43,471 nt of DNA from Candidatus Omnitrophota bacterium (GCA_020057015.1 JAGVGS010000107.1:1-43471); one strand, 5' to 3'; positions 19,942 through 40,134 are shown, counted from the first letter of the stretch. Translations and numbers: made by a program. Notes: generated from the sequence alone by a model not told the origin.

Positions 19942-19966
19942 AGCCCTGCAGGAGCTTAACGCCACG

Positions 19967-21739: not shown

Positions 21740-24700
21740 ATGACACCAGCGAACCGGAGAGGGGGTGAGCAGTCTATGGGAGCCACTTCGTGGCGCAGTT
21801 GGCGGGTAATCGCCGCCGGGGTCCTCGGCATTTTGACGGCCGGACTGCTCGCTTTCCCGCAGCCGGCCGAGGCGTTTCAGGTCAAGCGCGTGCTGCGCAA
21901 TACCACGGCCTTTCAGTTGCTGAATGGGGAAGAGGTCAAGACCTATGATCTGACGTCTCAGCTCGGCGGCGTGCCGCTGGACATGACTAAATGCTTTATC
22001 GTGGCCAGCACTTTCCCAAGTTCGGGCTTCAACACGCAAACAGACGCCTTTATCGCTATCGATGATCCATCCACCATCATGGCGGCCCGCCGCACGGGTA
22101 CGGCCCAGGTGGATATTCAGTTCATGGTCATTGAGTTTGTAGACGGCGTGTCGGTTCAATCGGGGCTGACGGTCATCTCTGAAACTGCGCTTACCAAGAA
22201 TATCGTACTTCCGGCCAGTGTTGATTTGGCAAAGTCCTTCGCGCTGATTACTTGGCGCTCCTTCAACCATAACACTCAGGCTACGCATGATGACAAGAAT
22301 CTTTATAGCGCCGACCTGACCGCGGTCAACAACTTGCGATTGCAGCGCAGCGACCAGGCCGGCACTTTCCTCAACGATGTGTATTACCAGGTGGTGTCTT
22401 TTGATGAGGACGTGACCGTCACGAAAGGTACGGTGGATATCGACGCGGTACAGGATGCCGGCGAGACATCTGACAACGGCACGGCTATGGTCGCCACCAT
22501 CAACCCGGCGCTCACCTCGGTAAATGACGCCATGATGTTCTTTACCATTCGGCCCTCCGCGGCGGTCAATGGGGTGGATCAACAATACAAAGTTGATGGT
22601 TATATCAACGCAACCAACGCCATCACATTTACGCGCAATAACAATACTAACAGCGTCTCCATTGTGTATTACTTGCTCAATTTCAGCAATGAGATGTACG
22701 TCCAGCATGCACGTAACACCGCAACCTTGCCCAACGGCACTGCCAGCGGCACGTTCAATTTGCCTACTGTTACAACGCTGGCCCGCACGTTCGGCACCTT
22801 CAGCTCCTCCGGGCCGGGCACTGCGGGCAACGCAGATAACCCCAGCCTCTATGTGACCGGGGCACTGGCATCGGTGGCTGGGCCTCAGACGCAGGTGACC
22901 TTGGCCCGCTCCGGTACGTCCGGAGCTACAGCGGTTAGCTACATGGCGCCTGAATTGCCGCCTGTCAATGTGACCGCACCCGATACCGCCAGTATTATCT
23001 GGAAAGTCGGCGAGGCGCGTACGATTACCTGGAAGCATGCCGATGATGTGGCGGCCAACACCGCGGCCATTGATCTGTCGGTTAACGGCGGCAGCGCCTG
23101 GTTAGGCACATCGATTACGTGTGATGAGGGCGCGCGCACCATGGCCAGCGATGTCTGCACGTGGACGATTCCGGATTCGCTCGGCGGCACCAGTGTGATC
23201 GGCAATAACTTGCGGATCCGAGTGCGGGATACGGTCCTCGCGGCCCGCAACTTTGACCCGACCGATGTGTCATTTGAAATCATCGGCTCGATTACCGTGA
23301 CGGCCCCCAATGGGAGTGAAGTGTGGTACGTCGGGGACACGAATCGGAACATCACATGGACGAACACCGGCAACCACACCACTGACAAGGTCAACATCTA
23401 TCTCTCGGAAAACGGCGGCAGCACCTACCCCACCGCGATTGTGACGGGAGGCAGTGCTCCTACGGTTGAATCGGGCACCTATGCGTGGAACCCGATGCCG
23501 GACAAAATCGGTACCGATCGTCGCGTGCGGGTTGAATCTCAGAATGATCCGGCCCCCATCGATGTCTTTGACACCTCGAATGCGAACTTTGAAATCCGAG
23601 GTAGCGTGACCGTGACCTACCCGAATGGGGCGGAAACGCTGGAGACACAGAAGGCTTATAACATCACGTGGAATAAGACCGGCACGTTTGCGCCGAATAA
23701 TGAAGTGAATATTTACTACTCCAAGAACAGCGGTGGGCAGTATCCCACCACGCTTGTCACGAACCAGGCAGCCGGCGCCTCGAGCGGCTCCTACTCCTGG
23801 ACCCCGGTGGCGGGGGATGTCAGCGATTTTGCGCGCGTGAAGGTGACGCAACGCGATAACTCCAATGTGACGGATGAATCGAACGCGGACTTCTTGGTCA
23901 AGCCCTCCATTGTGGTGAGCTATCCGAACGGGGGCGAGAACCTGGTGGTCGGCACGCCGACTAATGTGACCTGGACCACGAATGGGGCAGGCTTAGCCAA
24001 CGTCAAAATTGAGTATTCCATCAATGGCGGGGGTGCGTATAGCCCGATTATCGAGAATGACAACATTGCTGATGATGGGATTGTGACCAACAACGGCACG
24101 CGCTCGTGGGATGTGCCGGATGTCATTGGCGGCAATGTGCTGATCAAGATCAGCAATCCCTCGATATCGGCCATTAACGACGTATCGGATGCGATCTTCC
24201 GGGTGAAGGGGCAAACCAAGGTGTTGATTCCGAATGGGACCGAGCTGTGGCCGGTGGGCGGCTCACGCAACATTCAATGGAGCAATGTGGGTACGTTCAC
24301 CAGCAACGTGGACATTCGCTTTTCCACCAATGGCGGGGCAGATGGCTATCCGGGCGGGAACACGATTGTGGCGGGTCACACCAACACCGGGGCCAGCGGC
24401 AGCTACACCTGGAATCCGGTGGTGGACATTGCCGGGGGCTACAACAACGCGATGCGGATTAAAGTGCTGCCCGTGGATTCGGTGAACGTGGCCGAGGATA
24501 CGTCTGATGCCAGTTTTACCATCCATGGCACCTTGACCCTGGCAGCCCCCAATGGCGGCCAGACGTGGGTGTACGGCGGGGCGGCGCAGAACATCACCTG
24601 GACCAAGACCGGTGCGATCGGCAACGTGGAACTGCGCTACTCGACCAATAGCGGCGGGGGTTTCGGCTCGCCGTTTGCGACCGGCTTAAACCCGACGGCC

Positions 24701-27700
24701 GGCACACCGTATGCCTGGACGCTGCCGGACAGTCTGAGCAATGCCGCCCGTATTCAGGTGCGTACGGTGGATCAGCCCTTGGTCATTTATGATGATTCGG
24801 ATGCTGACTTCTTCCTGAAGGGGTCGCTCACCGTCACTGCGCCGAATACAGCGGTGACCTGGTACCGGGGGGATATCCAAAACGTGACCTGGACGCGCGC
24901 CGGGACAACCGGTGCGATGACCGGCAATGTTGACATTCATTACACCCCGGACAATGGGTCCAATTACTACGCGATCAGCGTGAACAACGTGCTGGCCAGC
25001 GCCGGCACCTACCCTTGGACCATTCCGACCGATGCGCCGAACGATACCGTGCAAAGCGATACGGTCAAGGTGCGCGTGCGTCTCTCGAGCGACACCGTCG
25101 TGTCCGATGAATCCAACGTCACCTTTAAGATCAAGCCTCGGCTGACCCTCACCGCGCCCAACACCAACGTTGCGTGGATCGTGGGCACCTCGCAGAACAT
25201 CACGTGGACCACGGCCGGCAGCGTGCCTAAGGTGAAGCTGAGCTATTCCACCACCGGGGGCAGTCCCTACGCGAACAGCATCGTGGCGGATCTGAGCAAC
25301 GTGAACAGCTATGCCTGGACGATTCCCGATGCCATTGGCACCCAACTGCGCGTGCTGGTGGCGAAAGACACGCCGGTGGATCCGGATAGTGCCGTGGAAG
25401 ACTTTTCCGATGCGGACTTTGAGATCAAGGGGTCGCTCACGCTGACGTCACCGAACCTGGGGACCGAGGTCTGGATCGTGGGCAGCTCGCAGAACATTAC
25501 CTGGACCAAGACCGGCAGCCTCACCGGCAATGTGAAGCTGTATTACTCCACGGACGGCGGGAGCACGTATGTGGGCGACCCGGCTAGCCCCTTTGCCACG
25601 GTGGCCGTGACCGCCGGCAGCTACGCCTGGACGATTCCGGACGCCATCGACAACGACCTGAAAGTCAAGGTCGTGTATGTTAACGACACGGCGGTGGCCG
25701 ATGCCTCAAACGCCGTCTTTACGGTGAAGGGGTCACTCACCATTACCGCACCCAACACCGGCACCGAGATCTGGGATGTGAACACCTTGCACAACATCAC
25801 CTGGACCAAGACCGGTACCATCGGCAATGTGGATTTGAGCCTCTCGCTGGATGGCGGGACCGATGGCTATGCGACGTCGATCGTCACCGGGGTGACCTCC
25901 ACCTCGCCGTATGCCTGGACGATCCCGAGCAACACCACCTTGACGGTCCAAGCCCGCGTGAAGATCGCACCCGTGACCGCCGCCCAGGCCGCGGCCGACA
26001 CCTCGGATGCCAACTTTCGCCTGCGCGGCAGCTTTACCCTAACCGCACCGAGCGGGCCGGAGAACTGGATCGTGGGGGCCTCCCAGAACATCACGTGGAC
26101 ATCGCTTGGCGGCATAGCCAACGCGAAGCTGGAATATTCCCGTGATAGCGGCAGCGACGGCTATCCGTATCTCATCACCGCCTCCACCCCGGCCGGGGCA
26201 GGCAGCTACGCTTGGACCGTGGGCTGGGCAGCGGCGGATGCGGATAAGACCAACAGCAGCACCATCCGCGTGCGGGTCTCGGATGCCGCGACCGCGGACG
26301 TCAACGACACCTCGGATGCGGACTTTACCATCCGCGGCTCGCTGGCGCTGACCGCCCCGAACGGCGGCGAAAACTGGCTGGTCGGCAGCAGCCAGAACAT
26401 CGCTTGGACCCGCACTGGGAAAATCCCGAACGTGAAGCTGGTGTATTCGGTGGATAGCGGGGTCGATGGGTATCCTGAATCAACACCCAATCAAACGATT
26501 GTTGGCTCCACCTCTGGCGAAGCGCTCAGCTACGCCTGGACGATTCCGGATAAAATCGGCACCGCGCTGCGGGTGAAGATCTATGACCTGAGCAGTGTCT
26601 CGGCGACGCCGGATACCTCGAATGCGGACTTTACCATCCGCGGCTCGCTAGCCGTGACCGCGCCCAACGGTAGCGAGAGCTGGACCTATGGCGGGGCAGC
26701 CCAGAACGTGACCTGGACGCTCAACGGCACGGTCACTGGGAATGTGAAGCTCTATTACTCCAACAACGGCGGCAGCAGCTATATGGGGGATCCAGGTACG
26801 CCCTTTGCCACCGTAGCCGCCTCGGCCGGGACCTATGCCTGGACGATTCCGGATGACCTCACCACGCAGGCTCGCGTGAAAATCACTCACGCCGGCAGCC
26901 CTACGGCGGATCCGGACGAGTCGAACGCCAACTTTACCATCAAAGGGGTATTGGTTTTGGTTGCCCCCAACGGCGGGGAGGACTGGCGCGCGGATGAGAG
27001 CCAGAACATCACCTGGACCCGCACCGGCACCATCGCCCTGGTGAACCTGTACTACTCCACCAACAGCGGCGGCACGTATCCGGTGACGATTGCCAGCGCT
27101 GTGAACGGCGGCAACCTGAGCCGCGCGTGGACGATCCCCAACACCCTGAGTGTCACCACCGCGCGCGTCAAGATCGAAGACAATGGCAATACCGCGGTGC
27201 TGGATACCTCGGATGCTGACTTCATCATCAAGCCGAAGCTTACTTTGCTGACCCCGAACGGCAGCGAAGTCTGGTACGTAAACAACAACACCGATGACAT
27301 TACCTGGACCACGAACGGCACGGTGGCGGAAGTGAACCTGAAGTACGCCACCGATGGGAGCACGTTCAGCAACCCGATCGCGACGCAGTTGGCCAACATC
27401 AACGCGTATGACAACTGGGTGATTCCCGATGCGCTCAGCACGACGGTGAAGGTGCGGGTGGAGAGCTTCACCGATGCGGCGAACGTGTCCGACGTCTCCA
27501 ACGCCGACTTCACGATCCGCGGCGCCATCACCGTGACCGCGCCCAACACGAACGTCACGTGGATTGTCGGCGACTCACAAAACGTGACCTGGACCAAGGT
27601 CGGCAGCCTCACCGGCAACGTCAATCTCTACTACTCGACGAATGGCGGCAGCAGCTACCTGGGCGACCCCGGCACGCCATTTGCTACTCCCACGGTGGCT

Positions 27701-30700
27701 TCGGGTAGCTATGCCTTGACGATTCCCGATGCGATCGGCAGCAACCTGAAGGTGAAAGCGGTTCTGGCGAATAACACCAGTGTGACCGATGAATCCAACA
27801 CGGCCTTTACCGTGAAGGGCTCGCTCATCATCAGCGCGCCTAACGGCGGAGAAGTCTGGGATGTGAACACCCTGAACAACATCACCTGGACCAAAACCGG
27901 CACCATCGGCAACGTGGATTTAAGCCTCTCGCTCGATGGCGGCACAGACGCCTACGCAACCTCGATTGTCACGGGGATCTCAGCCACCTCGCCCTATGCC
28001 TGGACCATTCCGAGCAACACCACCTTGACAGCCCAAGCCCGCGTGAAGATCGCACCCGTGACCGCAGCCCAGGCCGCAGCCGACACGTCCGATGCCAACT
28101 TCCGCCTCCGCGGCAGCTTTACCCTGACCGCGCCCAACGGCGGCGAGCCCTGGATCGTGGGGGCGGCCAATAACGTCACCTGGACGCTGCTCGGCGGCAT
28201 GGTCAACGCCAAGCTCGAATACACGCGTGATGGCGGCTCTACGTATCACACCATTGTGGCCTCGACTGCCGCCGGCTCAGGCAGCTATGCCTGGACCGTG
28301 GACTGGGCCAACAGCGATAACAGCAAACAGGTGTTGAACAGCAATACCATGCGCGTGCGGATATCCGACGCAGCGGATGTCACGGTGCAGGATAGCTCCA
28401 ACGCGAACTTTACGGTGAAGGGGAGCCTCACCCTGGCGGCCCCCAACGGTGGCGAGAACTGGCTGGTAGGCGGGGCACAGAACATCACTTGGACCCGCAC
28501 CGGGTATCTGCCGAACGTGAAGCTGGAGTATTCAACGGACGGCGGTTCCACCTATCCCAACGAAATCGTAGCCTCGACGTCAGGAGAGGCCCTGAGCTAT
28601 GCATGGACCATCCCGAACGCCATTGATAATGATCTGCGCGTGCAAGTCACCGATTTGAGTGCGGTGGCGGCTGCTGCGGATGTGTCGAATGCCAATTTCA
28701 CGATCCGCGGCGCGCTGACGCTTACCTCGCCCAACGGCGGCGAGCAGCTCGGGATTGCCGGCAGCCACAATATTACCTGGACCCGCACCGGGACGGTCAC
28801 CGAAAACGTGAAACTGGTGTACTCGACCGACGGGGGCTCGACCTATCCGGAACCAAGCAAGGTGATCGTCTCGGATGTCGTCGCCGCAACGCAGACCTAT
28901 GCCTGGACGGTTCCCGATGCCCCGACGATCCAGGCCCGCGTGAAAATCATCCACACGCCGGTGGCGACTCCGCTGGCCGACCCTGATGAGTCCAACGCCA
29001 ACTTCAGCATCAAAGGGACTCTGACCATCGTCGCCCCGAATGGCGCCGAGACGTGGAAGAGCGGCGAGTCGCGCAACATCACCTGGACCCGCGGCGGCAG
29101 CATCGCTAGCGTCAGGTTGAGCTACTCGAAGGACAGCGGAGCGACGTTCCCGACCCAGATCATCGCCTCTACGGCCGGCGCCGACCTGGCTTATGGCTGG
29201 ACCGTGCCGGATGTCGTGACGGCGGCGGATCGCACGAAGATTCGGGTGAAGATCGAGGATGTAGGTGATCCCACGGTGAGCGACACGTCCAACGCCGATT
29301 TCACGATTCGGCCCCAACTGACGTTGACGGCCCCCAACGGCGGCCAGACCTGGCTCGTGGGCGCTTCGCAGAATATTACGTGGACAAAGAACGGCAGCAT
29401 TCCGAACGTGAAACTCGTCTACTCGACCGATAGCGGCAGCACCTACCCTGAAGCCGCCCCTGATAACACGATTACGGGCTCCACGCCCGGGGCTGACCTG
29501 TCGTTTGCTTGGACCGTGCCGGATAAGGTGGGCACGCTGCTGCGCGTGAAGATCGTGCAGACCGATGATGCCGCGGTGGTGGACACGTCGGATGGCGATT
29601 TCGCCATCAAGGGCTCGCTCGCACTGACCTCACCCAACGGCGGGGAAACTTGGCTCGTCAACGAGTCGCGGGCCGTGACCTGGACCCGCGTGGGCACCAC
29701 GGGCACGATGGCCGGCAACGTTGAGCTGGCCTACTCGATCAACGGGGGCACCGGCTACGGGGCCGCGTTTGCCACCCCGCTGGCCAGCGCCTTAACCTAC
29801 GCCTGGACCGTGCCCGATGCCATTGGTACCCAGCTGCGGGTGCGCGTGCGGGCCGAAGGGGACACCTCGGTCAGCGATGAGTCAAATGCCAACTTCACCA
29901 TCAAGGGTATCCTGGCGCTCACCGCCCCGAATGGTGGTCAGACCTGGGGGGTGGGGACCACGCCCAACATCACCTGGACCCGCACCGGCTCGATTACCAA
30001 TGTGAAGCTCGACTACTCGGTCGATAGCGGCGGCAGCTTCCCCAACGCCATTATTGCCTCGACCGATGCGTCCACCGGGACCTATGCCTGGACCGTGCCG
30101 GCGGGGGCTGTGCTGTCCACGCAAGCGCGCGTGCGGGTGACGGACGCCGCTGATGCCGCGGTGGCGGATGATTCGAATGCCGATTTCAATCTGGTGGGCG
30201 TGCTCGTACTGACGGCCCCCAACGGCGGGGAGATTTGGGCCTATAACACGTCGCAGAACGTCACCTGGACCCGCAGCGGCAATATCAGCAACGTGAAGTT
30301 GGAGTATTCCACCAACGGCGGCTCCAGCTACCCGAACGTGATCATCGGCTCGACCGCGGCCGCCACGCAGTCCTACACCTGGACCGTGCCCAATGAGCAC
30401 AGCGCCACGGTGCGCGTGAAGGTCTCGGATGCGGCGGCGGCGTTTACCGGCATTGTCAGTGACACCTCAAACGCGAATTTCAAGATTCGCTCGGGCTTGA
30501 CCCTGAGTGCGCCGGATGGCGGCGAGGTGTGGACCGTGGGCTCGGCGCAAAGCGTCGGCTGGGGTAGCTCCGGCACGGTGAACAATGTGATGCTGGAGTA
30601 CTCCACGAACGGCGGCTCGAGCTACGATTTCTTGGTGACCAACTCCGCTCCCAATACCGGGTCCTACAGCTGGACCGTGCCGGACGCGATCGGCACTTCG

Positions 30701-33700
30701 GTGCGGGTGAAGATCACTGATGCGGAGGATGCGGCTGCCTCGGATGCCTCGAATGGCAACTTCAAGATCCGCGGTTCGTTGACCTTAGGCGCGCCCAACG
30801 GGGGCGAGCAATGGGGCATTGCGACCTCCAAGAACGTCACCTGGACACGCAACGGCTCCATTGCGAATGTGAAGCTCGACTACTCGCTGAATGGCGGCAC
30901 AGACTATGACGGTTCGATTGTCGCCTCGACCGCGGCCGCGGCCGGCACCTATGCGTGGACCATTCCAGACTTTCCGACTGCGACCGCGCGCGTGAAAGTC
31001 GCCGACGCTGCTGATGCGCTGCTGGTCTTCGACACCTCGAATGCCAACTTCAGCATCAAGGGCTCCGTCAACGTGACCGCGCCCAACGGCGGCGAGACCT
31101 GGATTGTCGGGGCAGACAACAATGTCACCTGGACCAAGTTTGGCTCTATTAGCAGCGTGGAGATCCGCTACTCCGAGAACAACGGGTCGACTTGGCCCGC
31201 TGGCAATATCATTGTCGGCTCCACCAGCGCGGCCGCCGGGACCTATACGTGGACGATTCCAGACAAGATCGGCAATAGTGTCCTCGTGCGGATTACGGAT
31301 ACGGCCGACACGAGCACCCTGGATGACTCCAATGCGGTGTTCAGTATCAAGGGGTCATACGCGTTGACCTCACCGAATGGCAGCGAAACGTGGGTCGTGG
31401 GCGAGAGCCGCAACATTACTTGGACGAAGACCGGGACCTTGGGGAATGCCAAGTTGGAAATGTCGGTGAACGGGGGCAGCGTCTACCCGACAGAAATAGT
31501 CAATCCGGTTGCCTCAGTCGACGGCACCTATGGCTGGACCGTGCCGGACGCCATTGGGACGCAGGTGCGGGTGAAAATCACCCTCTTGTCCGACACCGCG
31601 GTCAATGATGCTTCGAGTGGAAACTTCACCATTAAGGGGTCGTTGACGCTCAACGCGCCCAATGGTGGTGAAGTGTGGACCGTAGGCAGCAACCAGCCCA
31701 TCACGTGGTCCCGCGTGGGGTCGATCGCCAACGTGAAGCTGGTGTACTCCACGGATGGTGGCGTGAGCTATCCAGAGGTGGGTCCGGACAACACGATTGT
31801 GGCTTCGACTGCGGCCGCGGCGGGCAGTTATTCCTGGACGATTCCCGATGCCATTACCACGACCGCGCGCGTGAAAGCGATCGATTTCTCGGATGCCTCG
31901 GTCAGCGACACCTCGAATGCCAATTTCAAGATCGCCGGCTCCCTCGCGCTGACCGCGCCCAACGGCGGCGAAGCCTGGCTCATCGGGGGCAGCCAGAACA
32001 TTACGTGGACCAAGCAAGGCGCCATCGCCAATGTGAAGTTGGAGTATTCGACCAATAGCGGAGGGGCCTATCCGAACGAAATCATTGCCTCGACCTCGGC
32101 CGCGGCCGGCACCTATGCCTGGACCATCCCGGATGCGCCGAGCACTGCCGTGCGGGTGAAGATCACCAACACCTCAGACTCCACGGTCAATGATGCCTCC
32201 AACGCGGACTTCAATATCCGCGGGACGCTGACCGTGGTCGCTCCGAATGGCAGCGAAGTGTGGACCGTGGGCGAGAGCCGTAACATCACCTGGAGCAAGA
32301 CCGGCTCGATCAGCAACGTGGAGCTGCGCTACTCCACGAACAGCGGCAGCAGCTACCCGACCGTCATCGTGGCATCCACCGCGGCCAGTGCCCTCAGCTA
32401 TGCCTGGACCGTGCCCGATGCCATTAGCACGACGGCGCGGGTCAAAATCACTGATACCACGGACTCCGCGGTGACAGACACCTCGAATGCCGACTTCAAA
32501 ATCCGAGGCGCGTTGTTGGTGACGGCGCCCAACGGCGGCGAGACCTGGATTGTGGGCGCTGCCCAGAACATCACCTGGACTCGTACCGGGTCGATTGCCA
32601 ATGTGAAGCTGGACTACGCTACCGATGGCGGGATCGGGTATACCAATCCGATTACCGCCTCTACCGCAGGGGCCGCAGGCACGTATGCCTGGACGATTCC
32701 TGATGCGATCGGCAACCAGGTGCGGGTGCGCATCGGCGATGCGGCCGATGACAACAATGTGTACGACATGTCGGACAACAACCTCACGATCAAGGGCGCG
32801 GTGACCTTGAACGCGCCCAACGGCGCCGAGAGCTGGATCGTGGGCGCTTCGCAGAACATCACGTGGAGCAAAAGCGGCACCTTGGGCAACTGCAAGCTGG
32901 AATACTCCACCACTAGTGGTGCCGCCTACCCCAACGAAATTGTAAACCCGATCGCGTGTGCGACCCTCACCTATGCCTGGACCATCCCGGATGCGATCTC
33001 GGCAGGGGTGCGGGTCAAGCTGACGAACCTGGTCGATACCGGCGTGAGCGATGCCTCGAATGCGGACTTCAACATCAAAGGCTCGTTGACGCTCACCAGC
33101 CCCAACGGCAGCGAGACGTGGCTGGTGGGTGAGACCCGCAGCATCACGTGGACCAAGACCGGCTCGATTGCCACCGCGCGACTGGACTACTCCACCAATG
33201 GCGGGGTGGCGTATCCGAACGTGATCACCGCCTCGACCGGTGCCGGGGGACTCTCGTTCTTGTGGACCGTGCCGGATAACATGTCCACCAACGTCAAGGT
33301 GCGCATCCGCAATGTCGATGACACCACGGTAGAGGATGAATCCAACGCCAGCTTCAAGATCGCCGGATCCTTCACGCTGAATTCGCCCAACGGGGCGGAG
33401 AAGTGGCCGGCCGGCTCGCTGCAGTCGCTCACCTGGAGCAAGACCGGTTCTATTGCGAATGCGAAGTTGGAACTCTCGACCGATGGGGGCAGCACCTATC
33501 CCACGTTGATTGTGGCCACGACCCCAGCGAGCAATTTGAGCTATGCCTGGACGTTGGGCTCGGCCACGAGCACCCAATGCCGCGTGAAGATCACGGACGT
33601 GTCGGACTCGGGGGTGAACGACGCTACTAATGCGAACTTTAAGATCATGGGCGGGTTTAGCCTCACTGCGCCGAATGGCGGCGAAGTCTGGGTGGTGGGC

Positions 33701-36700
33701 AGCAGCCAGAACATCACCTGGACCACCAGCGGGACGGTCGCCAATGTGAAGCTGGACTACTCGACCGATGGGGGTGCTAGCTACCCGAACGTGATCACGG
33801 CCTCGGTGACCAACACCGGCTCCTACGGGTGGACGATTCCTGATGCGATTGGCACGACCCTGCGCGTGAAGGTCGAGGACGTGCTCGATATTGATGCGAA
33901 GGATGAGTCCGATGCCAACTTCAAGATCAAGGGCTCGGTGACCGTGACCGCGCCCAATGGTGGTGAGCTGTGGGATGTTGGCGCGAGTCAAAACATCACG
34001 TGGACCAAGACCGGCACCATTGCCAACGTCAAGATTGAGTTCTCCACCGATGGCGGCACCAACTACCCCGGCGGCGGGCAAGTGATCGCCAATTCATTCA
34101 ACGCCGGAGCGTTCAGCTACAGCTGGACGGTGCCGGACTATATTTACACCACCCTGCGCGTGCGGCTGACTGATGTCGGCGATGCGACGGTGGTGGATCA
34201 GTCCAACAACAACTTCACGGTGCGTGGGGCCTTCACGCTCACCGCGCCGAATGGCGGAGAAAAGTGGAAAGTCGGGGCAACGCAAGTCATCAGCTGGACC
34301 ACGTTTGGGACGATTCCCAATGTGAAGCTGGAGTACTCCAGCAACGGCGGCACGGACTACAGCAACATTGCGGCCTCCGCGGCCAACACCGGCACGTATA
34401 ACTGGACCCTACCTAACGCGATCTCGACCACCGCAAAGGTACGGGTCTCCAATGCAGCCGATGCCGGTACGCTGGATGTCTCGAACGCCAACTTTAAGAT
34501 TATGGGGAACTTCACGGTCACGGCGCCGGATGGCGGCGAAGTGCTGACTGCGGGCAGCAGCTATAACGTCACCTGGACGAACCAGGGCACGGTGTCCAAC
34601 GTCGAGCTGAAATACTCCACCAATAGCGGCGGGGCCTACGGCAATACCATCGTGGGCTCGGCTTCGAACACTGGAACCTATAGCTGGACGGTGCCGGATG
34701 CGATCTCCTCCACCCTGCGGGTGCGGGTGGCTGACGCAACCGATGCGACCGATGCGTTTGATACCTCCAATGCGGACTTCAAGATTCGCGCCGGGTTTAC
34801 CCTGACCGCACCCAATGGGAGTGAGGCCTGGACCGTCGGCACGGCGCGCAATGTGACATGGACCACCGCCGGCACGGTGGCCAACGTGAAGCTCGAGTAC
34901 TCCATCAACGGCGGCACCGATTATGTCAATATCATCGGCTCAACGGCCAACAGCAGTCCCTATAGCTGGACAATTCCCGATGCGATTACCACCGCCGGCC
35001 GGGTGCGGGTCTCGGATGTGAATGACAGCACGGCCAATGATGCCTCGAATGCGAACTTCAAGATCCAAGGGGTGCTCACCATGACCGCGCCCAACGGCGG
35101 GGAGAAGTGGACCGTCAACAGCGCCCGGTCGGTGAGCTGGGACCGCGTCGGATCCATTGCGAACGTGAAACTCGACTTCTCCACGAACGGCGGCTCGATC
35201 TACGCGCCCATTATCGCCTCCACCGCGAACACAGGGACGTATGCCTGGACGATTCCAGATAGCGTCTCGACCGACTGTTTGGTGAAGGTGACCGACACCA
35301 ATGATGCGACGGTGACCGATGCCTCCAACGCGGCCTTCAAGATTCAGGCCGGCTTTGTGGTGACCGCGCCCAACGGCGGCGAGGTGTGGGGCATCGGCTC
35401 AGCCCGCACGATTGCATGGACGACCAATGGAACCGTGGCTTTTGTCAAGATCGACTACTCTACGGATGGCGGGACTAATTACACCAACCAGATTACGACG
35501 TCTACCGCCAACACGGGGACCTACAACTGGACCATCCCGGATGCGATCTCTGGGACGGTGCGGGTGAAAGTCTCCCAAACCACGGATGCCGAGGCGTTTG
35601 ACACTTCGGATGGCAATTTCCGCATCCGTATCAGCGTGGCCTTGGTGGCCCCCAATGGGGCCGAGGTCTGGCGCGTGGGCCAGTCGCGCAACGTCACCTG
35701 GTCAATCAGCGGCACGATTCCCAACGTGAAGCTGCAGTACTCCCGCGATGGGTTCAATGCGGATCTGCAAACCATCAACATCAGTGCGCCCCAAACCGGC
35801 AGTTACGCCTGGACGATCCCGGATGCCATCTCCAACACGGTGCGCGTGCGCGTCAGCGACCCCAATGACATCGGGGCCTTGGATGACTCGAACGCCGACT
35901 TTAGGATCATTGCGAACTTTACCGTGACGGCGCCGAATGGCAGCGAGCAATGGACGGTCGGCAGCGCGCAAACCGTCACGTGGACGTCCGCAGGCTCGGT
36001 GTCCAATGTCAAGCTCGAGTACTCCACCAACTCGGGCGGGTCATGGAACCCCCTCCTGGGTTCCACCCCGAATGACGGTACCCAGGGCTGGACCGTGCCC
36101 GATGCGATCAGTGCCAATGCGCGTTTGCGCGTCAGCGACCCGGCCGACAGCACGTCAGATGATACCTCGGACAATGACTTCAAGATCCGGGCGTTCTTTG
36201 CCCTCAGCGCGCCCAATGGCAGCGAAATCTGGACGGTGAATGAGAGCCGCAACATCACGTGGACGAACACCGGCACGGTGCCCAATGTGAAGCTGGAGTA
36301 TTCCACGGATGGCGGCGCGAACTACAACCAAACCATTGCGGCCTCAACGGGTAATACGGGCACGTATGCCTGGACCGTGCCGGATGCCATTTCCACGACC
36401 GTGCGGGTCAAGGTGACGTCCACTACCGATGTGGATGGCAATGATGCCTCGGATGCGAACTTCAAGATCCGCGGCGCCTTTAATCTCACGGCGCCCAACG
36501 GGGCAGAGAACTGGAAGATTGCCAACAACCACACCATCACCTGGACAACCACCGGCACGATGGCCAACGTCAAGCTCTCCTACTCGACCAACGGAGGGGC
36601 CGCGTTCCCGAACACCATCATCGCCTCGGTGGCGAACACCAATAGCTACGTGTGGAATGTGGCCGATGCGCCCACCACGGCCGGCCGCGTGCGGGTGGAA

Positions 36701-38956
36701 AGCGTGCTGGACAACACGGTGTATGATGACTCGAATGCCAACTTCAACATCCAGGGTAACTTCACGCTGACGTTGCCGAACGGCGGCGAGTCCTGGAGTG
36801 TGGGGGAGAACCGAAACATCACCTGGAACTGGGGCGGCACGATTCCCAACGTGAAGCTCACTTACTCGACCGACAGCGGCAGCACGTTCCCGAGCGTGAT
36901 CACGGCCTCGGCGCCCAACGGGCCAGGCTCCAGCGGCAGCTTCAGCTACGCGTGGACCGTGCCGAATAGCATCACCACAACCGCGCGGGTCAAGGTGGAG
37001 GACGTCACGGATGGGGCGGTGTTCGATGCGTCCAACGCCGACTTCAAGATCCAGGGTAAGCTGACCCTCATCGCCCCCAACGGCAGCGACCGCTGGGTCG
37101 TGAATGAGACCAAGCCGATTCAGTGGAGCACCGCCGGCAGCATCAACAACGTGAAACTCGAGTACTCGACCGACAGCGGCAGCACGTATCCGAACACCAT
37201 CGTGGCCTCGGTGGCCAACGGGGGCAGCTACAACTGGGTCGTGCCCAACACGACGTCCACCACGGCGCGTGTACGGGTCCTCAACGTGGCGGACAACACC
37301 GTGGCCGATGCCTCGGATACCGACTTTACGATCGACCTGTATCAAATTACCGTGCATATCAAGGATCTCTTGACGAACAATGCGCTCGATCAGGTCGGGG
37401 TGGATGGCGCCAACAGCCTGAACGCCGCCTACCTGTGGCAGCAGTCGGGCATCACCTCGCCGATCACGAAAGGCCTGCAATACGGGACCTGGCCGATCAA
37501 GTTCAGCCGGGTCGAGTACGGCGACCAAGTGATCAATGTCGTGGCCGATAGGGACCAGACGATGAACGTGTACATGGAGACCCAGGTGGTGCACCTGTGG
37601 GAAGTGGTGACCGAGATGGCGTATAACTCCACCACCGATACCGTGGCGATTGCGGCCACGCTGCGTCGCGATGGGTCCACGGTCATCGGCGTCACCTCGA
37701 ATACGGTCAAATTCTATGATGGCGGTGCGCTGATCAAGACCTTTACCACGAATGGGGCCCCGGATGCCCAGGGCTTCTATAACTACACGTGGACCACTCC
37801 CACGGGCCTCGTGGCCGGCAAGGTGTACAATGTGGTCAGCAGCGGCACGATCGCGACGGGTGGCGTGTTCAACACGCCGAAGACCTTCAGCATCACGGAG
37901 GTTTCGAAGCTGCAGGATGTGCAAAATACGATCAATGATAAGTTGAATATGTCGATGAGCACGATGCAGACCAACATCCGCGGTGATTTGAGCGCGCAGA
38001 CCGGCACGATTACCGGGGCGTTGACGGCGCAGACATCGGCGATCAACACGTCGCTATCGAACTTTGAGACCAAGAGCGACGTGCAGATCAACGCCCTGAA
38101 GCTGCGCGCGGATGAGATCAAGGACGCCGGCGGCGAGCTGCAGAAGAGCAGCGAAGACTTGAACGCCACCAACGCCAAGTTCTCTGGCAACTTGATCACG
38201 CCGAAGAACGCGCTGATCAACGACAAGGATGTGAAGATCCAGTACCGGGCCATTCCGAACTTAGTACCGCTCATCACGATCACGGCTCAGGATACGAGCA
38301 ACCAAAGCGTGACCGTGGTCTCGGGAGAGCCGATGAGCCTGGTGGACGGCTACGCTGACATGTACGAATACACGATCGATAAGATCACCTCCCCGCCGTA
38401 CACGCCCGGCAAGGCCGTGAGCGTGGTGGTGGAGGCCGAGGTCTTCACCTACGTGCTCGATGCCGCGAAGGGCAAGGTGAAGAACGTCGAAGCGGGCTCT
38501 TTCATCGTGGAATCCACGACGCTGAGCACCCTCGAGGGCCTCGTGGCTTCGCAGGGCGGCCTGAAGGATCTGGTGCAGAGCATGGTGGCCACGATGAATG
38601 GGCTGAAAGGCAACGTGGCCAGCCGTGGGGATAGCATGGCCATGTTGGATGCCCTCAACCGGAAGATCGACCAATTGCCCAGGCTGATCGTGCAGGAGAT
38701 GAACCGCGGCAGCACAATGACCGACATGAAAGACGAGATCGCGCAGATCAGTGAGACCTTGCAGGATTTGGCGGGCAAGGATCTCGGGCTGGATCTGACC
38801 AATATCGTGGGCAAGGCGATCGATGAGTCCTCTGGGATCAAGGAGCTGCGCCAGTCGGCTGATCGGGTGCAGGGCAGCACCGAGCTCATGCAGAAAATCG
38901 TCGAACAAAAGTGGGGAGGCATCGATGCGCCGGTCATCCACGCGATCTACCAGTAA
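21740..38956 (+). CDS. Giant (5738 aa) secreted or surface repeat protein: unique N-terminal ~400 aa, 49 tandem Ig-like modules, ~540-aa C-terminal region
   Basis: A single uninterrupted ORF. Start is ATG 21740, 2 nt after the upstream stop, or ATG 21776 behind GGAGAGGGGG. Signal-like N-terminus is WRVIAAGVLGILTAGLLAFPQPAEA/F. Module consensus is sLTlTAPNGGE.W.VGs.QNITWT.tGsI.NVKLEYSTdGGstYpn.I.aSt.n.GsY.WTIPDaIst..RVkV.D..d..v.D.SnAnFkIrG. The C-terminus has beta-sandwich-like and low-complexity helical segments. Confidence 0.9.
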   Translation: MTPANRRGGEQSMGATSWRSWRVIAAGVLGILTAGLLAFPQPAEAFQVKRVLRNTTAFQLLNGEEVKTYDLTSQLGGVPLDMTKCFIVASTFPSSGFNTQTDAFIAIDDPSTIMAARRTGTAQVDIQFMVIEFVDGVSVQSGLTVISETALTKNIVLPASVDLAKSFALITWRSFNHNTQATHDDKNLYSADLTAVNNLRLQRSDQAGTFLNDVYYQVVSFDEDVTVTKGTVDIDAVQDAGETSDNGTAMVATINPALTSVNDAMMFFTIRPSAAVNGVDQQYKVDGYINATNAITFTRNNNTNSVSIVYYLLNFSNEMYVQHARNTATLPNGTASGTFNLPTVTTLARTFGTFSSSGPGTAGNADNPSLYVTGALASVAGPQTQVTLARSGTSGATAVSYMAPELPPVNVTAPDTASIIWKVGEARTITWKHADDVAANTAAIDLSVNGGSAWLGTSITCDEGARTMASDVCTWTIPDSLGGTSVIGNNLRIRVRDTVLAARNFDPTDVSFEIIGSITVTAPNGSEVWYVGDTNRNITWTNTGNHTTDKVNIYLSENGGSTYPTAIVTGGSAPTVESGTYAWNPMPDKIGTDRRVRVESQNDPAPIDVFDTSNANFEIRGSVTVTYPNGAETLETQKAYNITWNKTGTFAPNNEVNIYYSKNSGGQYPTTLVTNQAAGASSGSYSWTPVAGDVSDFARVKVTQRDNSNVTDESNADFLVKPSIVVSYPNGGENLVVGTPTNVTWTTNGAGLANVKIEYSINGGGAYSPIIENDNIADDGIVTNNGTRSWDVPDVIGGNVLIKISNPSISAINDVSDAIFRVKGQTKVLIPNGTELWPVGGSRNIQWSNVGTFTSNVDIRFSTNGGADGYPGGNTIVAGHTNTGASGSYTWNPVVDIAGGYNNAMRIKVLPVDSVNVAEDTSDASFTIHGTLTLAAPNGGQTWVYGGAAQNITWTKTGAIGNVELRYSTNSGGGFGSPFATGLNPTAGTPYAWTLPDSLSNAARIQVRTVDQPLVIYDDSDADFFLKGSLTVTAPNTAVTWYRGDIQNVTWTRAGTTGAMTGNVDIHYTPDNGSNYYAISVNNVLASAGTYPWTIPTDAPNDTVQSDTVKVRVRLSSDTVVSDESNVTFKIKPRLTLTAPNTNVAWIVGTSQNITWTTAGSVPKVKLSYSTTGGSPYANSIVADLSNVNSYAWTIPDAIGTQLRVLVAKDTPVDPDSAVEDFSDADFEIKGSLTLTSPNLGTEVWIVGSSQNITWTKTGSLTGNVKLYYSTDGGSTYVGDPASPFATVAVTAGSYAWTIPDAIDNDLKVKVVYVNDTAVADASNAVFTVKGSLTITAPNTGTEIWDVNTLHNITWTKTGTIGNVDLSLSLDGGTDGYATSIVTGVTSTSPYAWTIPSNTTLTVQARVKIAPVTAAQAAADTSDANFRLRGSFTLTAPSGPENWIVGASQNITWTSLGGIANAKLEYSRDSGSDGYPYLITASTPAGAGSYAWTVGWAAADADKTNSSTIRVRVSDAATADVNDTSDADFTIRGSLALTAPNGGENWLVGSSQNIAWTRTGKIPNVKLVYSVDSGVDGYPESTPNQTIVGSTSGEALSYAWTIPDKIGTALRVKIYDLSSVSATPDTSNADFTIRGSLAVTAPNGSESWTYGGAAQNVTWTLNGTVTGNVKLYYSNNGGSSYMGDPGTPFATVAASAGTYAWTIPDDLTTQARVKITHAGSPTADPDESNANFTIKGVLVLVAPNGGEDWRADESQNITWTRTGTIALVNLYYSTNSGGTYPVTIASAVNGGNLSRAWTIPNTLSVTTARVKIEDNGNTAVLDTSDADFIIKPKLTLLTPNGSEVWYVNNNTDDITWTTNGTVAEVNLKYATDGSTFSNPIATQLANINAYDNWVIPDALSTTVKVRVESFTDAANVSDVSNADFTIRGAITVTAPNTNVTWIVGDSQNVTWTKVGSLTGNVNLYYSTNGGSSYLGDPGTPFATPTVASGSYALTIPDAIGSNLKVKAVLANNTSVTDESNTAFTVKGSLIISAPNGGEVWDVNTLNNITWTKTGTIGNVDLSLSLDGGTDAYATSIVTGISATSPYAWTIPSNTTLTAQARVKIAPVTAAQAAADTSDANFRLRGSFTLTAPNGGEPWIVGAANNVTWTLLGGMVNAKLEYTRDGGSTYHTIVASTAAGSGSYAWTVDWANSDNSKQVLNSNTMRVRISDAADVTVQDSSNANFTVKGSLTLAAPNGGENWLVGGAQNITWTRTGYLPNVKLEYSTDGGSTYPNEIVASTSGEALSYAWTIPNAIDNDLRVQVTDLSAVAAAADVSNANFTIRGALTLTSPNGGEQLGIAGSHNITWTRTGTVTENVKLVYSTDGGSTYPEPSKVIVSDVVAATQTYAWTVPDAPTIQARVKIIHTPVATPLADPDESNANFSIKGTLTIVAPNGAETWKSGESRNITWTRGGSIASVRLSYSKDSGATFPTQIIASTAGADLAYGWTVPDVVTAADRTKIRVKIEDVGDPTVSDTSNADFTIRPQLTLTAPNGGQTWLVGASQNITWTKNGSIPNVKLVYSTDSGSTYPEAAPDNTITGSTPGADLSFAWTVPDKVGTLLRVKIVQTDDAAVVDTSDGDFAIKGSLALTSPNGGETWLVNESRAVTWTRVGTTGTMAGNVELAYSINGGTGYGAAFATPLASALTYAWTVPDAIGTQLRVRVRAEGDTSVSDESNANFTIKGILALTAPNGGQTWGVGTTPNITWTRTGSITNVKLDYSVDSGGSFPNAIIASTDASTGTYAWTVPAGAVLSTQARVRVTDAADAAVADDSNADFNLVGVLVLTAPNGGEIWAYNTSQNVTWTRSGNISNVKLEYSTNGGSSYPNVIIGSTAAATQSYTWTVPNEHSATVRVKVSDAAAAFTGIVSDTSNANFKIRSGLTLSAPDGGEVWTVGSAQSVGWGSSGTVNNVMLEYSTNGGSSYDFLVTNSAPNTGSYSWTVPDAIGTSVRVKITDAEDAAASDASNGNFKIRGSLTLGAPNGGEQWGIATSKNVTWTRNGSIANVKLDYSLNGGTDYDGSIVASTAAAAGTYAWTIPDFPTATARVKVADAADALLVFDTSNANFSIKGSVNVTAPNGGETWIVGADNNVTWTKFGSISSVEIRYSENNGSTWPAGNIIVGSTSAAAGTYTWTIPDKIGNSVLVRITDTADTSTLDDSNAVFSIKGSYALTSPNGSETWVVGESRNITWTKTGTLGNAKLEMSVNGGSVYPTEIVNPVASVDGTYGWTVPDAIGTQVRVKITLLSDTAVNDASSGNFTIKGSLTLNAPNGGEVWTVGSNQPITWSRVGSIANVKLVYSTDGGVSYPEVGPDNTIVASTAAAAGSYSWTIPDAITTTARVKAIDFSDASVSDTSNANFKIAGSLALTAPNGGEAWLIGGSQNITWTKQGAIANVKLEYSTNSGGAYPNEIIASTSAAAGTYAWTIPDAPSTAVRVKITNTSDSTVNDASNADFNIRGTLTVVAPNGSEVWTVGESRNITWSKTGSISNVELRYSTNSGSSYPTVIVASTAASALSYAWTVPDAISTTARVKITDTTDSAVTDTSNADFKIRGALLVTAPNGGETWIVGAAQNITWTRTGSIANVKLDYATDGGIGYTNPITASTAGAAGTYAWTIPDAIGNQVRVRIGDAADDNNVYDMSDNNLTIKGAVTLNAPNGAESWIVGASQNITWSKSGTLGNCKLEYSTTSGAAYPNEIVNPIACATLTYAWTIPDAISAGVRVKLTNLVDTGVSDASNADFNIKGSLTLTSPNGSETWLVGETRSITWTKTGSIATARLDYSTNGGVAYPNVITASTGAGGLSFLWTVPDNMSTNVKVRIRNVDDTTVEDESNASFKIAGSFTLNSPNGAEKWPAGSLQSLTWSKTGSIANAKLELSTDGGSTYPTLIVATTPASNLSYAWTLGSATSTQCRVKITDVSDSGVNDATNANFKIMGGFSLTAPNGGEVWVVGSSQNITWTTSGTVANVKLDYSTDGGASYPNVITASVTNTGSYGWTIPDAIGTTLRVKVEDVLDIDAKDESDANFKIKGSVTVTAPNGGELWDVGASQNITWTKTGTIANVKIEFSTDGGTNYPGGGQVIANSFNAGAFSYSWTVPDYIYTTLRVRLTDVGDATVVDQSNNNFTVRGAFTLTAPNGGEKWKVGATQVISWTTFGTIPNVKLEYSSNGGTDYSNIAASAANTGTYNWTLPNAISTTAKVRVSNAADAGTLDVSNANFKIMGNFTVTAPDGGEVLTAGSSYNVTWTNQGTVSNVELKYSTNSGGAYGNTIVGSASNTGTYSWTVPDAISSTLRVRVADATDATDAFDTSNADFKIRAGFTLTAPNGSEAWTVGTARNVTWTTAGTVANVKLEYSINGGTDYVNIIGSTANSSPYSWTIPDAITTAGRVRVSDVNDSTANDASNANFKIQGVLTMTAPNGGEKWTVNSARSVSWDRVGSIANVKLDFSTNGGSIYAPIIASTANTGTYAWTIPDSVSTDCLVKVTDTNDATVTDASNAAFKIQAGFVVTAPNGGEVWGIGSARTIAWTTNGTVAFVKIDYSTDGGTNYTNQITTSTANTGTYNWTIPDAISGTVRVKVSQTTDAEAFDTSDGNFRIRISVALVAPNGAEVWRVGQSRNVTWSISGTIPNVKLQYSRDGFNADLQTINISAPQTGSYAWTIPDAISNTVRVRVSDPNDIGALDDSNADFRIIANFTVTAPNGSEQWTVGSAQTVTWTSAGSVSNVKLEYSTNSGGSWNPLLGSTPNDGTQGWTVPDAISANARLRVSDPADSTSDDTSDNDFKIRAFFALSAPNGSEIWTVNESRNITWTNTGTVPNVKLEYSTDGGANYNQTIAASTGNTGTYAWTVPDAISTTVRVKVTSTTDVDGNDASDANFKIRGAFNLTAPNGAENWKIANNHTITWTTTGTMANVKLSYSTNGGAAFPNTIIASVANTNSYVWNVADAPTTAGRVRVESVLDNTVYDDSNANFNIQGNFTLTLPNGGESWSVGENRNITWNWGGTIPNVKLTYSTDSGSTFPSVITASAPNGPGSSGSFSYAWTVPNSITTTARVKVEDVTDGAVFDASNADFKIQGKLTLIAPNGSDRWVVNETKPIQWSTAGSINNVKLEYSTDSGSTYPNTIVASVANGGSYNWVVPNTTSTTARVRVLNVADNTVADASDTDFTIDLYQITVHIKDLLTNNALDQVGVDGANSLNAAYLWQQSGITSPITKGLQYGTWPIKFSRVEYGDQVINVVADRDQTMNVYMETQVVHLWEVVTEMAYNSTTDTVAIAATLRRDGSTVIGVTSNTVKFYDGGALIKTFTTNGAPDAQGFYNYTWTTPTGLVAGKVYNVVSSGTIATGGVFNTPKTFSITEVSKLQDVQNTINDKLNMSMSTMQTNIRGDLSAQTGTITGALTAQTSAINTSLSNFETKSDVQINALKLRADEIKDAGGELQKSSEDLNATNAKFSGNLITPKNALINDKDVKIQYRAIPNLVPLITITAQDTSNQSVTVVSGEPMSLVDGYADMYEYTIDKITSPPYTPGKAVSVVVEAEVFTYVLDAAKGKVKNVEAGSFIVESTTLSTLEGLVASQGGLKDLVQSMVATMNGLKGNVASRGDSMAMLDALNRKIDQLPRLIVQEMNRGSTMTDMKDEIAQISETLQDLAGKDLGLDLTNIVGKAIDESSGIKELRQSADRVQGSTELMQKIVEQKWGGIDAPVIHAIYQ
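22964..37339 (+). repeat. 49 tandem in-frame coding modules (93-108 aa each, 4792 aa in total)
   Basis: Counted module by module from the translation. The lengths sum exactly to aa 409-5200 of the ORF. Each module carries APNG, an (I/V)TW strand, an Asp-box-like S-x-D-G-G-x-x-Y/W motif, (A/S)WT(I/V)P and a terminal (A/G)(D/N)F.I.(G/P/A). Confidence 0.95.
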
Positions 38957-39803: not shown

Positions 39804-40067
39804 ATGGCCGCCGGCCTGCTGCACGTCGTCGTCCTTAGCCCCGAGCAGGTGCTCTTTGAGGGCGATGCCGACCATGTGATCGCCCCCGGAGAGTATGGGG
39901 TCTTCGAAATCCTGCCCTTCCACCGGCCCTTTGGCAGCTTGCTGCTGCCTGGACACCTCATCATTGATTCCCAGGCCCTGCCCATCGAGCGGGGGGTGCT
40001 GCGCGTTGAGCGAGACACTGTTACTGCCCTTGTCGAACTGCCGCCTGAAAACGGGGACAGTTACTAA
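39804..40067 (+). CDS. atpC: F-type ATPase epsilon subunit, beta-sandwich domain only (87 aa)
   Basis: LLHVVVLSPEQVLFEGDADHVIAPGEYGVFEILPFHRPFGSLLLPGHLII..ERGVLRVERDTVTALVE matches the epsilon N-terminal domain pattern. There is no C-terminal helical hairpin. The last ~6 codons and the stop lie inside palindromic element copy 3. Confidence 0.7.
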   Translation: MAAGLLHVVVLSPEQVLFEGDADHVIAPGEYGVFEILPFHRPFGSLLLPGHLIIDSQALPIERGVLRVERDTVTALVELPPENGDSY

Positions 40068-40123: not shown

Positions 40124-40134
40124 GCTCGCCTGCC

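Follow-up and report, generated by a model that had tools for sequence, protein, structure and literature searches.

How does a bacterium hold on its surface a fibre of several thousand residues that carries no recognised sorting signal, and under what control is such a fibre made? Both questions are raised by a locus of a Candidatus Omnitrophota bacterium (GCA_020057015.1, JAGVGS010000107.1), which we analysed over a window of 43,471 bp, a complete metagenome contig whose plus strand encodes a protein of 5738 amino acids (aa), here called the giant. Omnitrophota are uncultivated, ultra-small and apparently host-dependent, and their giant proteins are mostly unannotated. On balance we favour the reading that the giant is a fibrillar, adhesin-like surface protein of an Omnitrophota-lineage bacterium, gated by cyclic di-GMP (c-di-GMP), and its gene is the main cargo of a tightly packed and conserved cassette.

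The gene (21740..38956, +) spans 17.2 kb and is an open reading frame (ORF) with one stop, at its end. Most of it encodes a stalk of 49 tandem Ig-like modules (22958..37336, +) of the PF10342 (Kre9_KNH-like) type, which are 93–109 aa long and each carry an Asp-box-like hairpin. A motif scan combined with alignment places the module starts between aa 407 and aa 5106, with the last module ending near aa 5200, and a profile hidden Markov model made from the 49 segments finds exactly 49 domains (aa 409–5198), the number that an earlier sequence-only reading of this DNA had counted in the 5738-aa frame. The motifs listed in that reading (APNGGE, NITWT, an Asp-box-like stretch and AWT.PD) agree with the computed module consensus, GxLTLTAPNGGExWxVGxxxNITWTxxGxxxNVKLxYSTxGGxxYPxxI...GxYAWTxPDAIxTxxRVKVxxxxDxxVxDxSNAxFxI, and the resemblance to PF10342 suggested there is borne out by hmmscan: three modules (43.6 bits) and aa 1–1000 (52.9 bits) exceed the gathering score of 24.6, and the two halves of the array reach 105.8 and 123.9 bits (E 2e-30 and 4e-36). 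The comparison with Asp-box/BNR proteins stands in part. The hairpin motif S.[DN].G..[YWF] is present in 37 of the 49 modules (14 in the strict form S.D.G..[YWF]), and Pfam Reelin_subrepeat-B, from a family whose subrepeats contain Asp-boxes, matches this stretch with E 3.5e-12; no BNR family is found among the Pfam matches of the array, propeller periodicity is also absent, and each ~97-aa period fits the Ig-like model and not a propeller blade. The modules abut directly without linkers, Pfam reveals no inserted foreign domain in either half of the array, and a sequence-profile search of the PDB with the 49-module profile gives no solved homologue. Since tandem Ig-like domains measure ~4 nm each, 49 of them would form a rod of ~200 nm, and it is into such a fibre that the giant is proposed to fold after Sec export. 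This length is about the cell diameter given for Omnitrophota nanobacteria (PMC10066038).

A long tandem array on a metagenome contig might be an assembly artefact or belong to a pseudogene, which we consider hardly credible here. The frame stays open over 5738 codons and the architecture recurs in independent JGI, NCBI and ENA assemblies. Pairwise amino-acid identity between modules averages 45%, with a maximum of 90% for modules 10 and 17, which belong to a 7-module higher-order duplication (modules 9–12 versus 16–19); the duplicated block covers about four to five modules, at 25472–27036 and 27560–29106 of the window (gene nt 3733–5297 and 5821–7367). At the DNA level this block is the best internal match (1.6 kb at 71% identity), the remaining array is 63–67% identical, and exact repeats of 40 nt or longer are absent. 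Because the modules have diverged and lack such exact repeats, collapse or expansion of the array during assembly is unlikely, and the modules are old duplicates. The homologous giant genes and conserved neighbours that the sequence-only reading had proposed to look for were indeed found, the neighbours as a cassette encountered again in roughly 15–30 Omnitrophota loci. Independent assemblies contain full-length or nearly full-length relatives of like architecture: P0009 (6910 aa, complete), in which the module number differs (58 modules, 49 here), and, in GCA_016196355.1, a gene called at 6681 aa. A further one of matching architecture is a gene of at least 3982 aa on SBAZ01000029 (L003).

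The first step of export can be read from the N-terminus. Met13 (nt 21776) is the likelier start, giving a protein of 5726 aa, because the Shine-Dalgarno sequence GGAGAGGGGG lies upstream of it and the closest homologue, P0008 (72% identical), begins there. It opens a predicted Sec-type signal peptide (Met13–Ala45; 21776..21874, +), which holds the only segment of the giant with a Kyte–Doolittle hydropathy above 1.6 (aa 20–42), followed by a conserved signal-peptidase-I-type AxA site with predicted cleavage at AEA↓FQVKR; nearly all close homologues share the mature N-terminus [FY]Q[VI]KR. A Sec signal followed by an AxA site implies periplasmic export. The sequence-only reading had seen no secretion tag and had left export open; the signal peptide settles this first step, and the observation that no known anchor motif is present stands.

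Directly behind the signal peptide lies the head, which consists of four homologous β repeats of ~90 aa (aa 46–136, 137–224, 225–318 and 319–409; 21875..22966, +), as profile–profile comparison of the four quarters by hhalign gives probabilities of 95.6–98.2%. AlphaFold, using a 19-sequence alignment, models the head as a single compact all-β body with a predicted local distance difference test score (pLDDT) of 82 and a predicted template-modelling score of 0.87. Searches of Pfam and NCBIfam give no significant match for it, and BLASTP finds no paralogue among the window ORFs. The N-terminal domain had been called unique in the earlier reading, which is contradicted by its internal repeats and by its relatives, of which an exhaustive HMMER search returns 343 representative proteins at E ≤1e-3 and 20 at E ≤1e-30 (a word-indexed search strongly undercounted, with 2 relatives for the head and 5 for the C-terminal region). 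Among the closer relatives the head likewise follows a signal peptide directly and often precedes arrays of the giant's module type. In the distant homologues P0007, P0067, P0072 and P0078, which come from other bacteria, the head repeat stands behind a minor-pilin/PilX-like hydrophobic N-terminal helix, in two or three tandem copies, and many smaller secreted proteins with the repeat have the mature N-terminus (I/V)K(S/N)VQ(S/T)G. The head repeat appears to be a widespread domain family without a Pfam model. The best PDB match of the head model in Foldseek is the C-terminal domain of PCSK9 (E 6e-5, template-modelling (TM) score 0.50), which has pseudo-threefold symmetry, with weak jelly-roll capsid matches next; in a viral library the top matches, also weak, are phage tail-fibre, baseplate and minor-tail proteins, and single ~93-aa head repeats superpose on tail-fibre C-terminal domains with a root-mean-square deviation of 3–5 Å. 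These likenesses between models are taken as resemblance only, and a function should not be transferred from them.

At the other end of the stalk, the C-terminal region (aa 5195–5738) was modelled by AlphaFold on a 6-sequence alignment. It begins with two β-sandwiches (aa 5195–5269 and 5287–5384; 37322..37891, +; pLDDT mostly 78–90), which are conserved in P0001–P0005, L003 and P0009, followed by a long Ser/Thr/Gln/Asn-rich helix of ~90 residues (aa 5388–5479; 37901..38176, +), a possible coiled coil modelled with low confidence, whose length differs between homologues. Next come a third β-sandwich (aa 5490–5591; 38207..38512, +; pLDDT 76–90), present in duplicate in P0005, and a bundle of low-pLDDT helices (aa 5608–5725) that leads into the conserved extreme C-terminus GGIDAPVIHAIYQ (bundle and C-terminus, 38561..38953, +). 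All homologues end in P-V-V-H-x-x-Y-Q or a near variant, a predicted strand of the form PV(V/I)H.(I/V)YQ, and a C-terminal region with the matching extreme C-terminus is found in P0001–P0005, P0009 and L003. The β segments and Ser/Thr/Asn/Gln-rich helices described in the sequence-only reading agree with this model, and its carboxypeptidase-regulatory-like label has no counterpart, as no CarboxypepD_reg match is found in Pfam. The region has no significant Pfam or NCBIfam match and no paralogue among the window ORFs by BLASTP, and its sequence profile retrieves from the PDB only coiled-coil and designed-protein noise or nothing. Foldseek searches with the C-terminal model were uninformative, giving generic multi-sandwich matches (complement MG, FN3) at a TM score of ~0.15.

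Compared with P0009, the head is 42% and the C-terminal region 51% identical. Hence the more variable head is proposed to be the distal, ligand-binding tip of the fibre and the more conserved C-terminal region its cell-proximal anchor. The same two ends can be read differently: the giant may be a structural coat, S-layer-like or a matrix scaffold, in which the head serves as an assembly or self-association module and the fibre, as a general component of the envelope or of a biofilm, is shed or covers the cell. Its composition, rich in Thr, Ala, Ser, Gly and Asn and almost free of Cys, is that of many surface-layer and matrix proteins, and the strands FQVKR at the N-terminus and PVVHxxYQ at the C-terminus could drive head-to-tail or lateral assembly; a coat role has also been proposed for Omnitrophota giant proteins (Seymour 2023, PMC10066038). 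We nevertheless think a coat unlikely, as the gene is very large and present in a single copy per locus, the combination in one chain of a head, a long spacer and a conserved anchor is typical of fibrillar adhesins, and the faster divergence of the head than of the anchor fits a ligand-binding tip.

If the giant is a surface fibre tethered at its C-terminus, it is not by a classical route. LP.TG occurs nowhere in the giant and no hydrophobic window is found beyond aa 20–42; pattern and NCBIfam searches give neither a PEP-CTERM motif nor a C-terminal transmembrane segment; the last 544 aa have no NCBIfam or Pfam match to a sorting domain of the type IX secretion system (T9SS; TIGR04183 or TIGR04131 type); the GG.G.D motif of RTX proteins is absent from the giant; and there is no Pfam match to an autotransporter or type V secretion system (T5SS) barrel, the C-terminal model being made of sandwiches plus helices. 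Among the called window ORFs there is also no match to the ATP-binding cassette (ABC), membrane fusion protein (MFP) or TolC families. The pattern search and the Pfam and NCBIfam searches of the termini confirm what the sequence-only reading had noted by eye for LPXTG, PEP-CTERM, the T9SS domain, RTX and the autotransporter barrel. As far as sequence can tell, the giant falls outside the LPXTG, PEP-CTERM, T9SS, RTX/type I secretion system (T1SS) and T5SS classes though it is built like a fibrillar adhesin. Because a classical sorting signal is absent, the fibre is most plausibly held or assembled by the three envelope proteins encoded in the same cassette, and we hypothesize that the conserved C-terminal region ties it to the envelope via these membrane and periplasmic proteins.

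The first of the three is the partner, a bitopic protein of 277 aa (38958..39791, +) that starts 1 nt after the stop of the giant gene. It is composed of a signal peptide, a β domain, a helical region, a conserved juxtamembrane and transmembrane segment and a cytoplasmic tail. Its homologues number 186 at 49–67% identity; none has a Pfam domain, all of those with a named source are Ca. Omnitrophica, and the database entry P0157 is 100% identical to the partner. In 7/7 distinct loci examined the partner gene directly follows the giant's C-terminal-type gene. The juxtamembrane/transmembrane segment, LKSDAPSTTTTW(L/M)VIFLI.IF.GLLGGQFFFTW.RR, is almost invariant in 27 homologues. This conservation exceeds what a simple anchor needs and suggests that the segment may have an intramembrane binding partner. 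A sequence-profile search of the PDB with the partner gives coiled-coil and designed-protein noise or nothing.

Upstream, a 173-aa gene ends 1 nt short of the giant ORF. The encoded secreted protein (21217..21738, +) has a signal peptide, an Ala/Lys-rich linker and a small β domain, and no Pfam or NCBIfam family matches it. It is preceded by a gene for a RAYT-like protein of the Y1/HUH transposase fold (19916..21217, +; probable start ATG 19967), whose stop overlaps the start of the 173-aa gene (TGATG). The RAYT-like protein matches PF01797 at E 1e-6 and NCBIfam REP_Tyr_transpos with 57 bits, below the cutoff of 80. In the window copy HxH has become QLH and the catalytic Tyr is replaced by Gly, its closest relatives have likewise lost the first HUH His and the Tyr, and every member carries a transmembrane helix and a conserved C-terminal domain of ~130 aa predicted to face the periplasm; to judge by these features it is not an ordinary transposase. 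A shorter RAYT paralogue just upstream (18738–19538) has an intact HVH motif and Tyr and scores 92.7 bits with REP_Tyr_transpos, above the cutoff. A metagenome scan with the head yielded 33 loci, in which neighbours were sought by tblastn: upstream of the head gene the RAYT-like gene is found in ~27/33 and the small secreted protein in ~18/33, in constant order. One of the loci with the giant, partner and ATPase arrangement of the Omnitrophota-labelled metagenome-assembled genomes, L003 (SBAZ01000029.1), is labelled 'Planctomycetales bacterium', which suggests either a conflict of binning or taxonomy label or a wider distribution of the cassette.

The location of the three accessory proteins, all periplasm-facing or in the inner membrane, also fits a fibre that never reaches the surface, namely an envelope-internal tether that the partner would bind to the inner membrane and that would remain in the periplasm or an expanded space resembling it. 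The giant has a Sec signal only, without an outer-membrane targeting feature. We rate this as very improbable, since a rod of ~200 nm far exceeds a normal periplasm and the variation in module number between 49 here and 58 in P0009 is that of surface fibres.

Production of the fibre is proposed to be controlled at the head of the operon. Rfam identifies three c-di-GMP-I class riboswitches in the window, of which the one at 19619..19696 (+) precedes the RAYT-like gene; its best model is the GGC variant (RF03167, 68.9 bits, gathering score 59; Rfam clan CL00126). The same class is found at the orthologous position in 14/16 related loci (49–72 bits), counting as evaluable those with a full RAYT-like gene and enough upstream sequence. 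An intrinsic terminator forms the expression platform (19703..19737, +), with an 11-bp stem containing 7 GC pairs (hairpin dG −19.5), followed by the U-run TTTTTGTTTGT, and a strong hairpin with a U-run lies 32–76 nt past the aptamer in 15/15 loci, window included. In the window and close relatives the 5′ arm of the terminator, GCGUCCUC, is complementary to the conserved GGACGC of the aptamer. Since the arm could pair with the aptamer core instead, and should be freed for the terminator once ligand stabilises the aptamer fold, the riboswitch may be an OFF switch, a conclusion that we hold with moderate-to-low confidence. Transcription would be gated by c-di-GMP or, for the GGC variant, by a close analogue. 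Surface and motility genes are common targets of GEMM-I riboswitches, and c-di-GMP riboswitches also control matrix genes, a point in favour of the coat discussed above. Two HD-GYP genes, a gene for a HAMP protein and two genes for AAA_22 ATPases lie further upstream in the window; all recur in L004, and L021 has the same set except that it shows just one AAA_22 region.

The other end of the transcription unit lies beyond the partner. A gene for a short ATP synthase epsilon subunit, consisting of the N-terminal domain only (39804..40067, +; orthologues match PF02823, tblastn 46–61% identity), is followed by a long hairpin and U6 (40053..40124, +), the likely terminator of the unit, for which RNAfold of 40040–40135 gives −43.9 kcal/mol and after which UUUUUUG is read. 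Because this strong terminator follows the epsilon gene, which is the last gene before it, the unit probably ends there and comprises the riboswitch, the RAYT-like gene, the small protein, the giant, the partner and epsilon.

The genes further downstream raise the question whether the fibre is part of a larger machine. The window contains ATPase genes at 39804–42788, in which the b and delta subunits appear fused, and shows giant, partner and ATPase in this order as far as alpha, at which point the contig stops. The order is invariant across 6 distinct related loci: giant, partner, epsilon, c, b/delta, alpha, gamma, beta, MshEN, GspE, GspF, pseudopilins. Where contigs continue past the ATPase, they encode an MshEN protein, MshEN-GspE, GspF, GspG and minor pseudopilins, and GspE/F/G/J/K-like genes are located ~6–10 kb downstream in L004, L005, L007 and L008. 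The giant, the partner, the F-type ATPase and the genes like those of type II secretion systems (T2SS) and type IV pili (T4P) could be read as one motor-linked apparatus for attachment or motility, and the invariant order from the giant to the pseudopilins is the first point in its favour. Epsilon moreover is part of the transcription unit of the giant, and the other ATPase genes of the window have a c-di-GMP riboswitch of their own, ahead of c, b/delta and alpha (40204..40283, +; RF01051, 62.3 bits, gathering score 35), with a hairpin downstream at 40300–40324; the almost invariant transmembrane segment of the partner would suit an intramembrane partner. The alpha subunit is, however, close to canonical F1 alpha (E 1e-144), the c subunit retains the ion-binding Glu (IFVEAI), and the ATPase-position riboswitch is not conserved, being not found in L001, L003, L004, L005, L007 and L008. 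The ATPase cluster lacks a gene for subunit a both in the window and in L001–L008, and this gene may simply lie elsewhere. Synteny by itself is no proof of a functional link, and we regard a motor-linked apparatus as improbable.

Giant filamentous surface proteins next to a motor are known. The leg proteins of Mycoplasma mobile are driven by an F1-like ATPase, and SprB of Flavobacterium by the T9SS motor. The giant is similar to SprB and to Gli349 of M. mobile in being a giant filamentous surface protein with a motor or secretion system nearby, but it has no sequence relation to them, no C-terminal T9SS domain and no N-terminal transmembrane anchor, and its motor link is a hypothesis drawn from synteny. 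In a more specific form of that hypothesis, to which we likewise give only a small chance, the cassette, the ATPase lacking subunit a in its cluster and the T2SS/T4P-like system would be a single c-di-GMP-gated machine, with the cassette as its surface arm, that moves, holds or extends the fibre for attachment to a host, the fibre being anchored by strand complementation of PVVHxxYQ into the partner. If true, this would be a third independent solution beside the F1-like gliding motor of Mycoplasma and the SprB/T9SS motor of Flavobacterium. A specialised ATPase cannot be claimed, as alpha looks canonical and c keeps its carboxylate. Nor did the PDB ranking, in which canonical F1 alpha comes first, support an F1-like enzyme of the Mycoplasma type as the downstream ATPase.

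For the adhesin-like surface fibre that we favour, the neighbouring T2SS-like machine offers a possible passage through the outer membrane. With its signal peptide and conserved AxA site the giant would have the Sec-dependent periplasmic intermediate expected of a T2SS substrate. This passage is the weakest step of the proposed mechanism, and our confidence in it, as in the anchoring step, is in each case considerably lower than in the reading as a whole. Several points weigh against that reading. The topology of the partner places it in the inner membrane, so that a fibre exposed on the surface would require a conduit through the outer membrane; the related loci retrieved showed no secretin, T2SS substrates are normally globular, and the synteny with the ATPase and T2SS-like genes could reflect mere shared ancestry of closely related genomes. 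As to the proposed anchor, hhalign does not relate the partner to the C-terminal region, and the C-terminal helices are modelled at pLDDT <50. The head cannot be assigned to a lectin or adhesin family, and it resembles known structures only weakly (TM score ≤0.5). Finally, adhesion is usually promoted by high c-di-GMP, and an OFF-type switch would act the opposite way.

How new is this arrangement? Fibrillar adhesins with LPXTG motifs, such as SasG and Ebh, likewise have an N-terminal Sec signal, a globular N-domain, an Ig-like stalk, a separate C-region and a variable repeat number. In contrast to them, the giant has no LPXTG or other known anchor, its head and C-region belong to no Pfam family, its host is presumably diderm, and three dedicated envelope proteins are co-encoded. 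The RTX/T1SS adhesins LapA, MpIBP and SiiE share with it the giant Ig-like fibre, the Gram-negative-type cell, the tie to c-di-GMP and dedicated neighbours. However, the orientation of the giant is reversed, with an N-terminal Sec signal instead of a C-terminal T1SS signal; it has no RTX nonapeptides and no retention module, ABC, MFP and TolC genes are missing from the window, and control is by a riboswitch and not, as in LapA-type systems, by LapD/LapG proteolysis. Modules above the Pfam gathering threshold are shared with other bacterial PF10342 proteins, from which the giant differs by its 49 consecutive copies and its specific head and tail; to the fungal glucan-synthesis proteins Kre9 and Knh1 there is no functional link. 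GEMM-I riboswitches control adhesin and pilus genes, for example Vibrio cholerae gbpA and genes for Clostridioides difficile surface proteins. Those systems resemble the one described here in having a GEMM-I aptamer at the Rfam level and a terminator platform before a surface-protein operon, whereas the window aptamer best fits the GGC variant and the first regulated gene encodes a transposase-fold membrane protein.

Giant ORFs have also been described from Omnitrophota, with sizes of >20 kb and often >30,000 aa, many transmembrane helices and SecA-DEAD, C39 or dockerin domains (West-Roberts 2023, bioRxiv 10.1101/2023.11.21.568195; Seymour 2023, PMC10066038); the 'tandem-repeat scaffold' class (Nielsen & Lui 2026) is counted with them here. 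The giant belongs to the same phylum and, like these, is a long predicted surface protein rich in repeats, encoded close to T2SS/T4P-like genes and with c-di-GMP-related neighbours. It differs in that the gene is only 17.2 kb long, below the 20-kb and 10-kaa thresholds of the published surveys, has a single signal peptide and one module type, and lies upstream of an ATPase/T2SS locus with its own riboswitch and accessory genes. One class definition asks for >30,000 aa, many transmembrane regions and a divergent SecA DEAD domain (West-Roberts 2023, bioRxiv 10.1101/2023.11.21.568195); the giant has 5738 aa, one hydrophobic segment and PF10342-type matches only. F-type ATPase/type IVa pilus loci are reported from every Omnitrophota class, with giant ORFs treated separately (Seymour 2023, PMC10066038), and the literature searched contains no description of the cassette, nor of a link between the ATPase/type IVa pilus locus and the cassette or its riboswitch. 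A giant Ig-repeat surface fibre is thus of a known kind; the novelty lies in the combination of this head family with the tail module, a set of accessory proteins and conserved control by a riboswitch.

The remaining genes of the window are mentioned for completeness. At its start (47–7037) are found a Peptidase_C25 gene (47–1963) and genes for a GDSL-like hydrolase, a P-loop protein (3059–3889), a radical SAM/SPASM protein (4145–5437) and an NTP_transf_5 protein with a Peptidase_S24 domain (5631–7037). Together they could be a peptide-modification cluster, and they are not linked to the giant in related loci. The Peptidase_C25 protein was considered as a PorU-like sorting peptidase and rejected, as the giant has no C-terminal T9SS domain and the 10-kb stretches preceding the head gene in related loci yielded no such gene. 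The block that follows (7121–13098) encodes an IS30-like integrase, three pilin- or pseudopilin-like proteins and a PAS histidine kinase and contains the remaining riboswitch (8204–8278, c-di-GMP-I-GGC, 71.3 bits), which lies ahead of the three pilin-like genes (8343–11433); their products have GLSLVE- and GFTLIE-type N-termini and include a PilX-like protein. Because the block is absent from the otherwise syntenic L021, it looks like an insertion. The AAA_22 pair (14138–15762) resembles the XrtA/PEP-CTERM-associated family TIGR03015 (E 1e-64 and 6e-55), with scores of 217.8 and 186.6 bits that are both under the cutoff of 324.5. There is no tRNA gene in the window.

The locus bears on how Omnitrophota attach to partner cells. 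It is a recurrent and tractable cassette with clear boundaries, which offers a confidently modelled head for binding tests and, in the C-terminal module and the three accessory proteins, a candidate anchoring route. The riboswitch would tie production of the fibre to a second messenger, and the locus joins two features that have been discussed apart, giant surface proteins and the F-type ATPase/pilus-like locus (Seymour 2023, PMC10066038). If the proposed anchoring route is true, it would be a new way to attach giant Sec-exported fibres in diderm-type cells.

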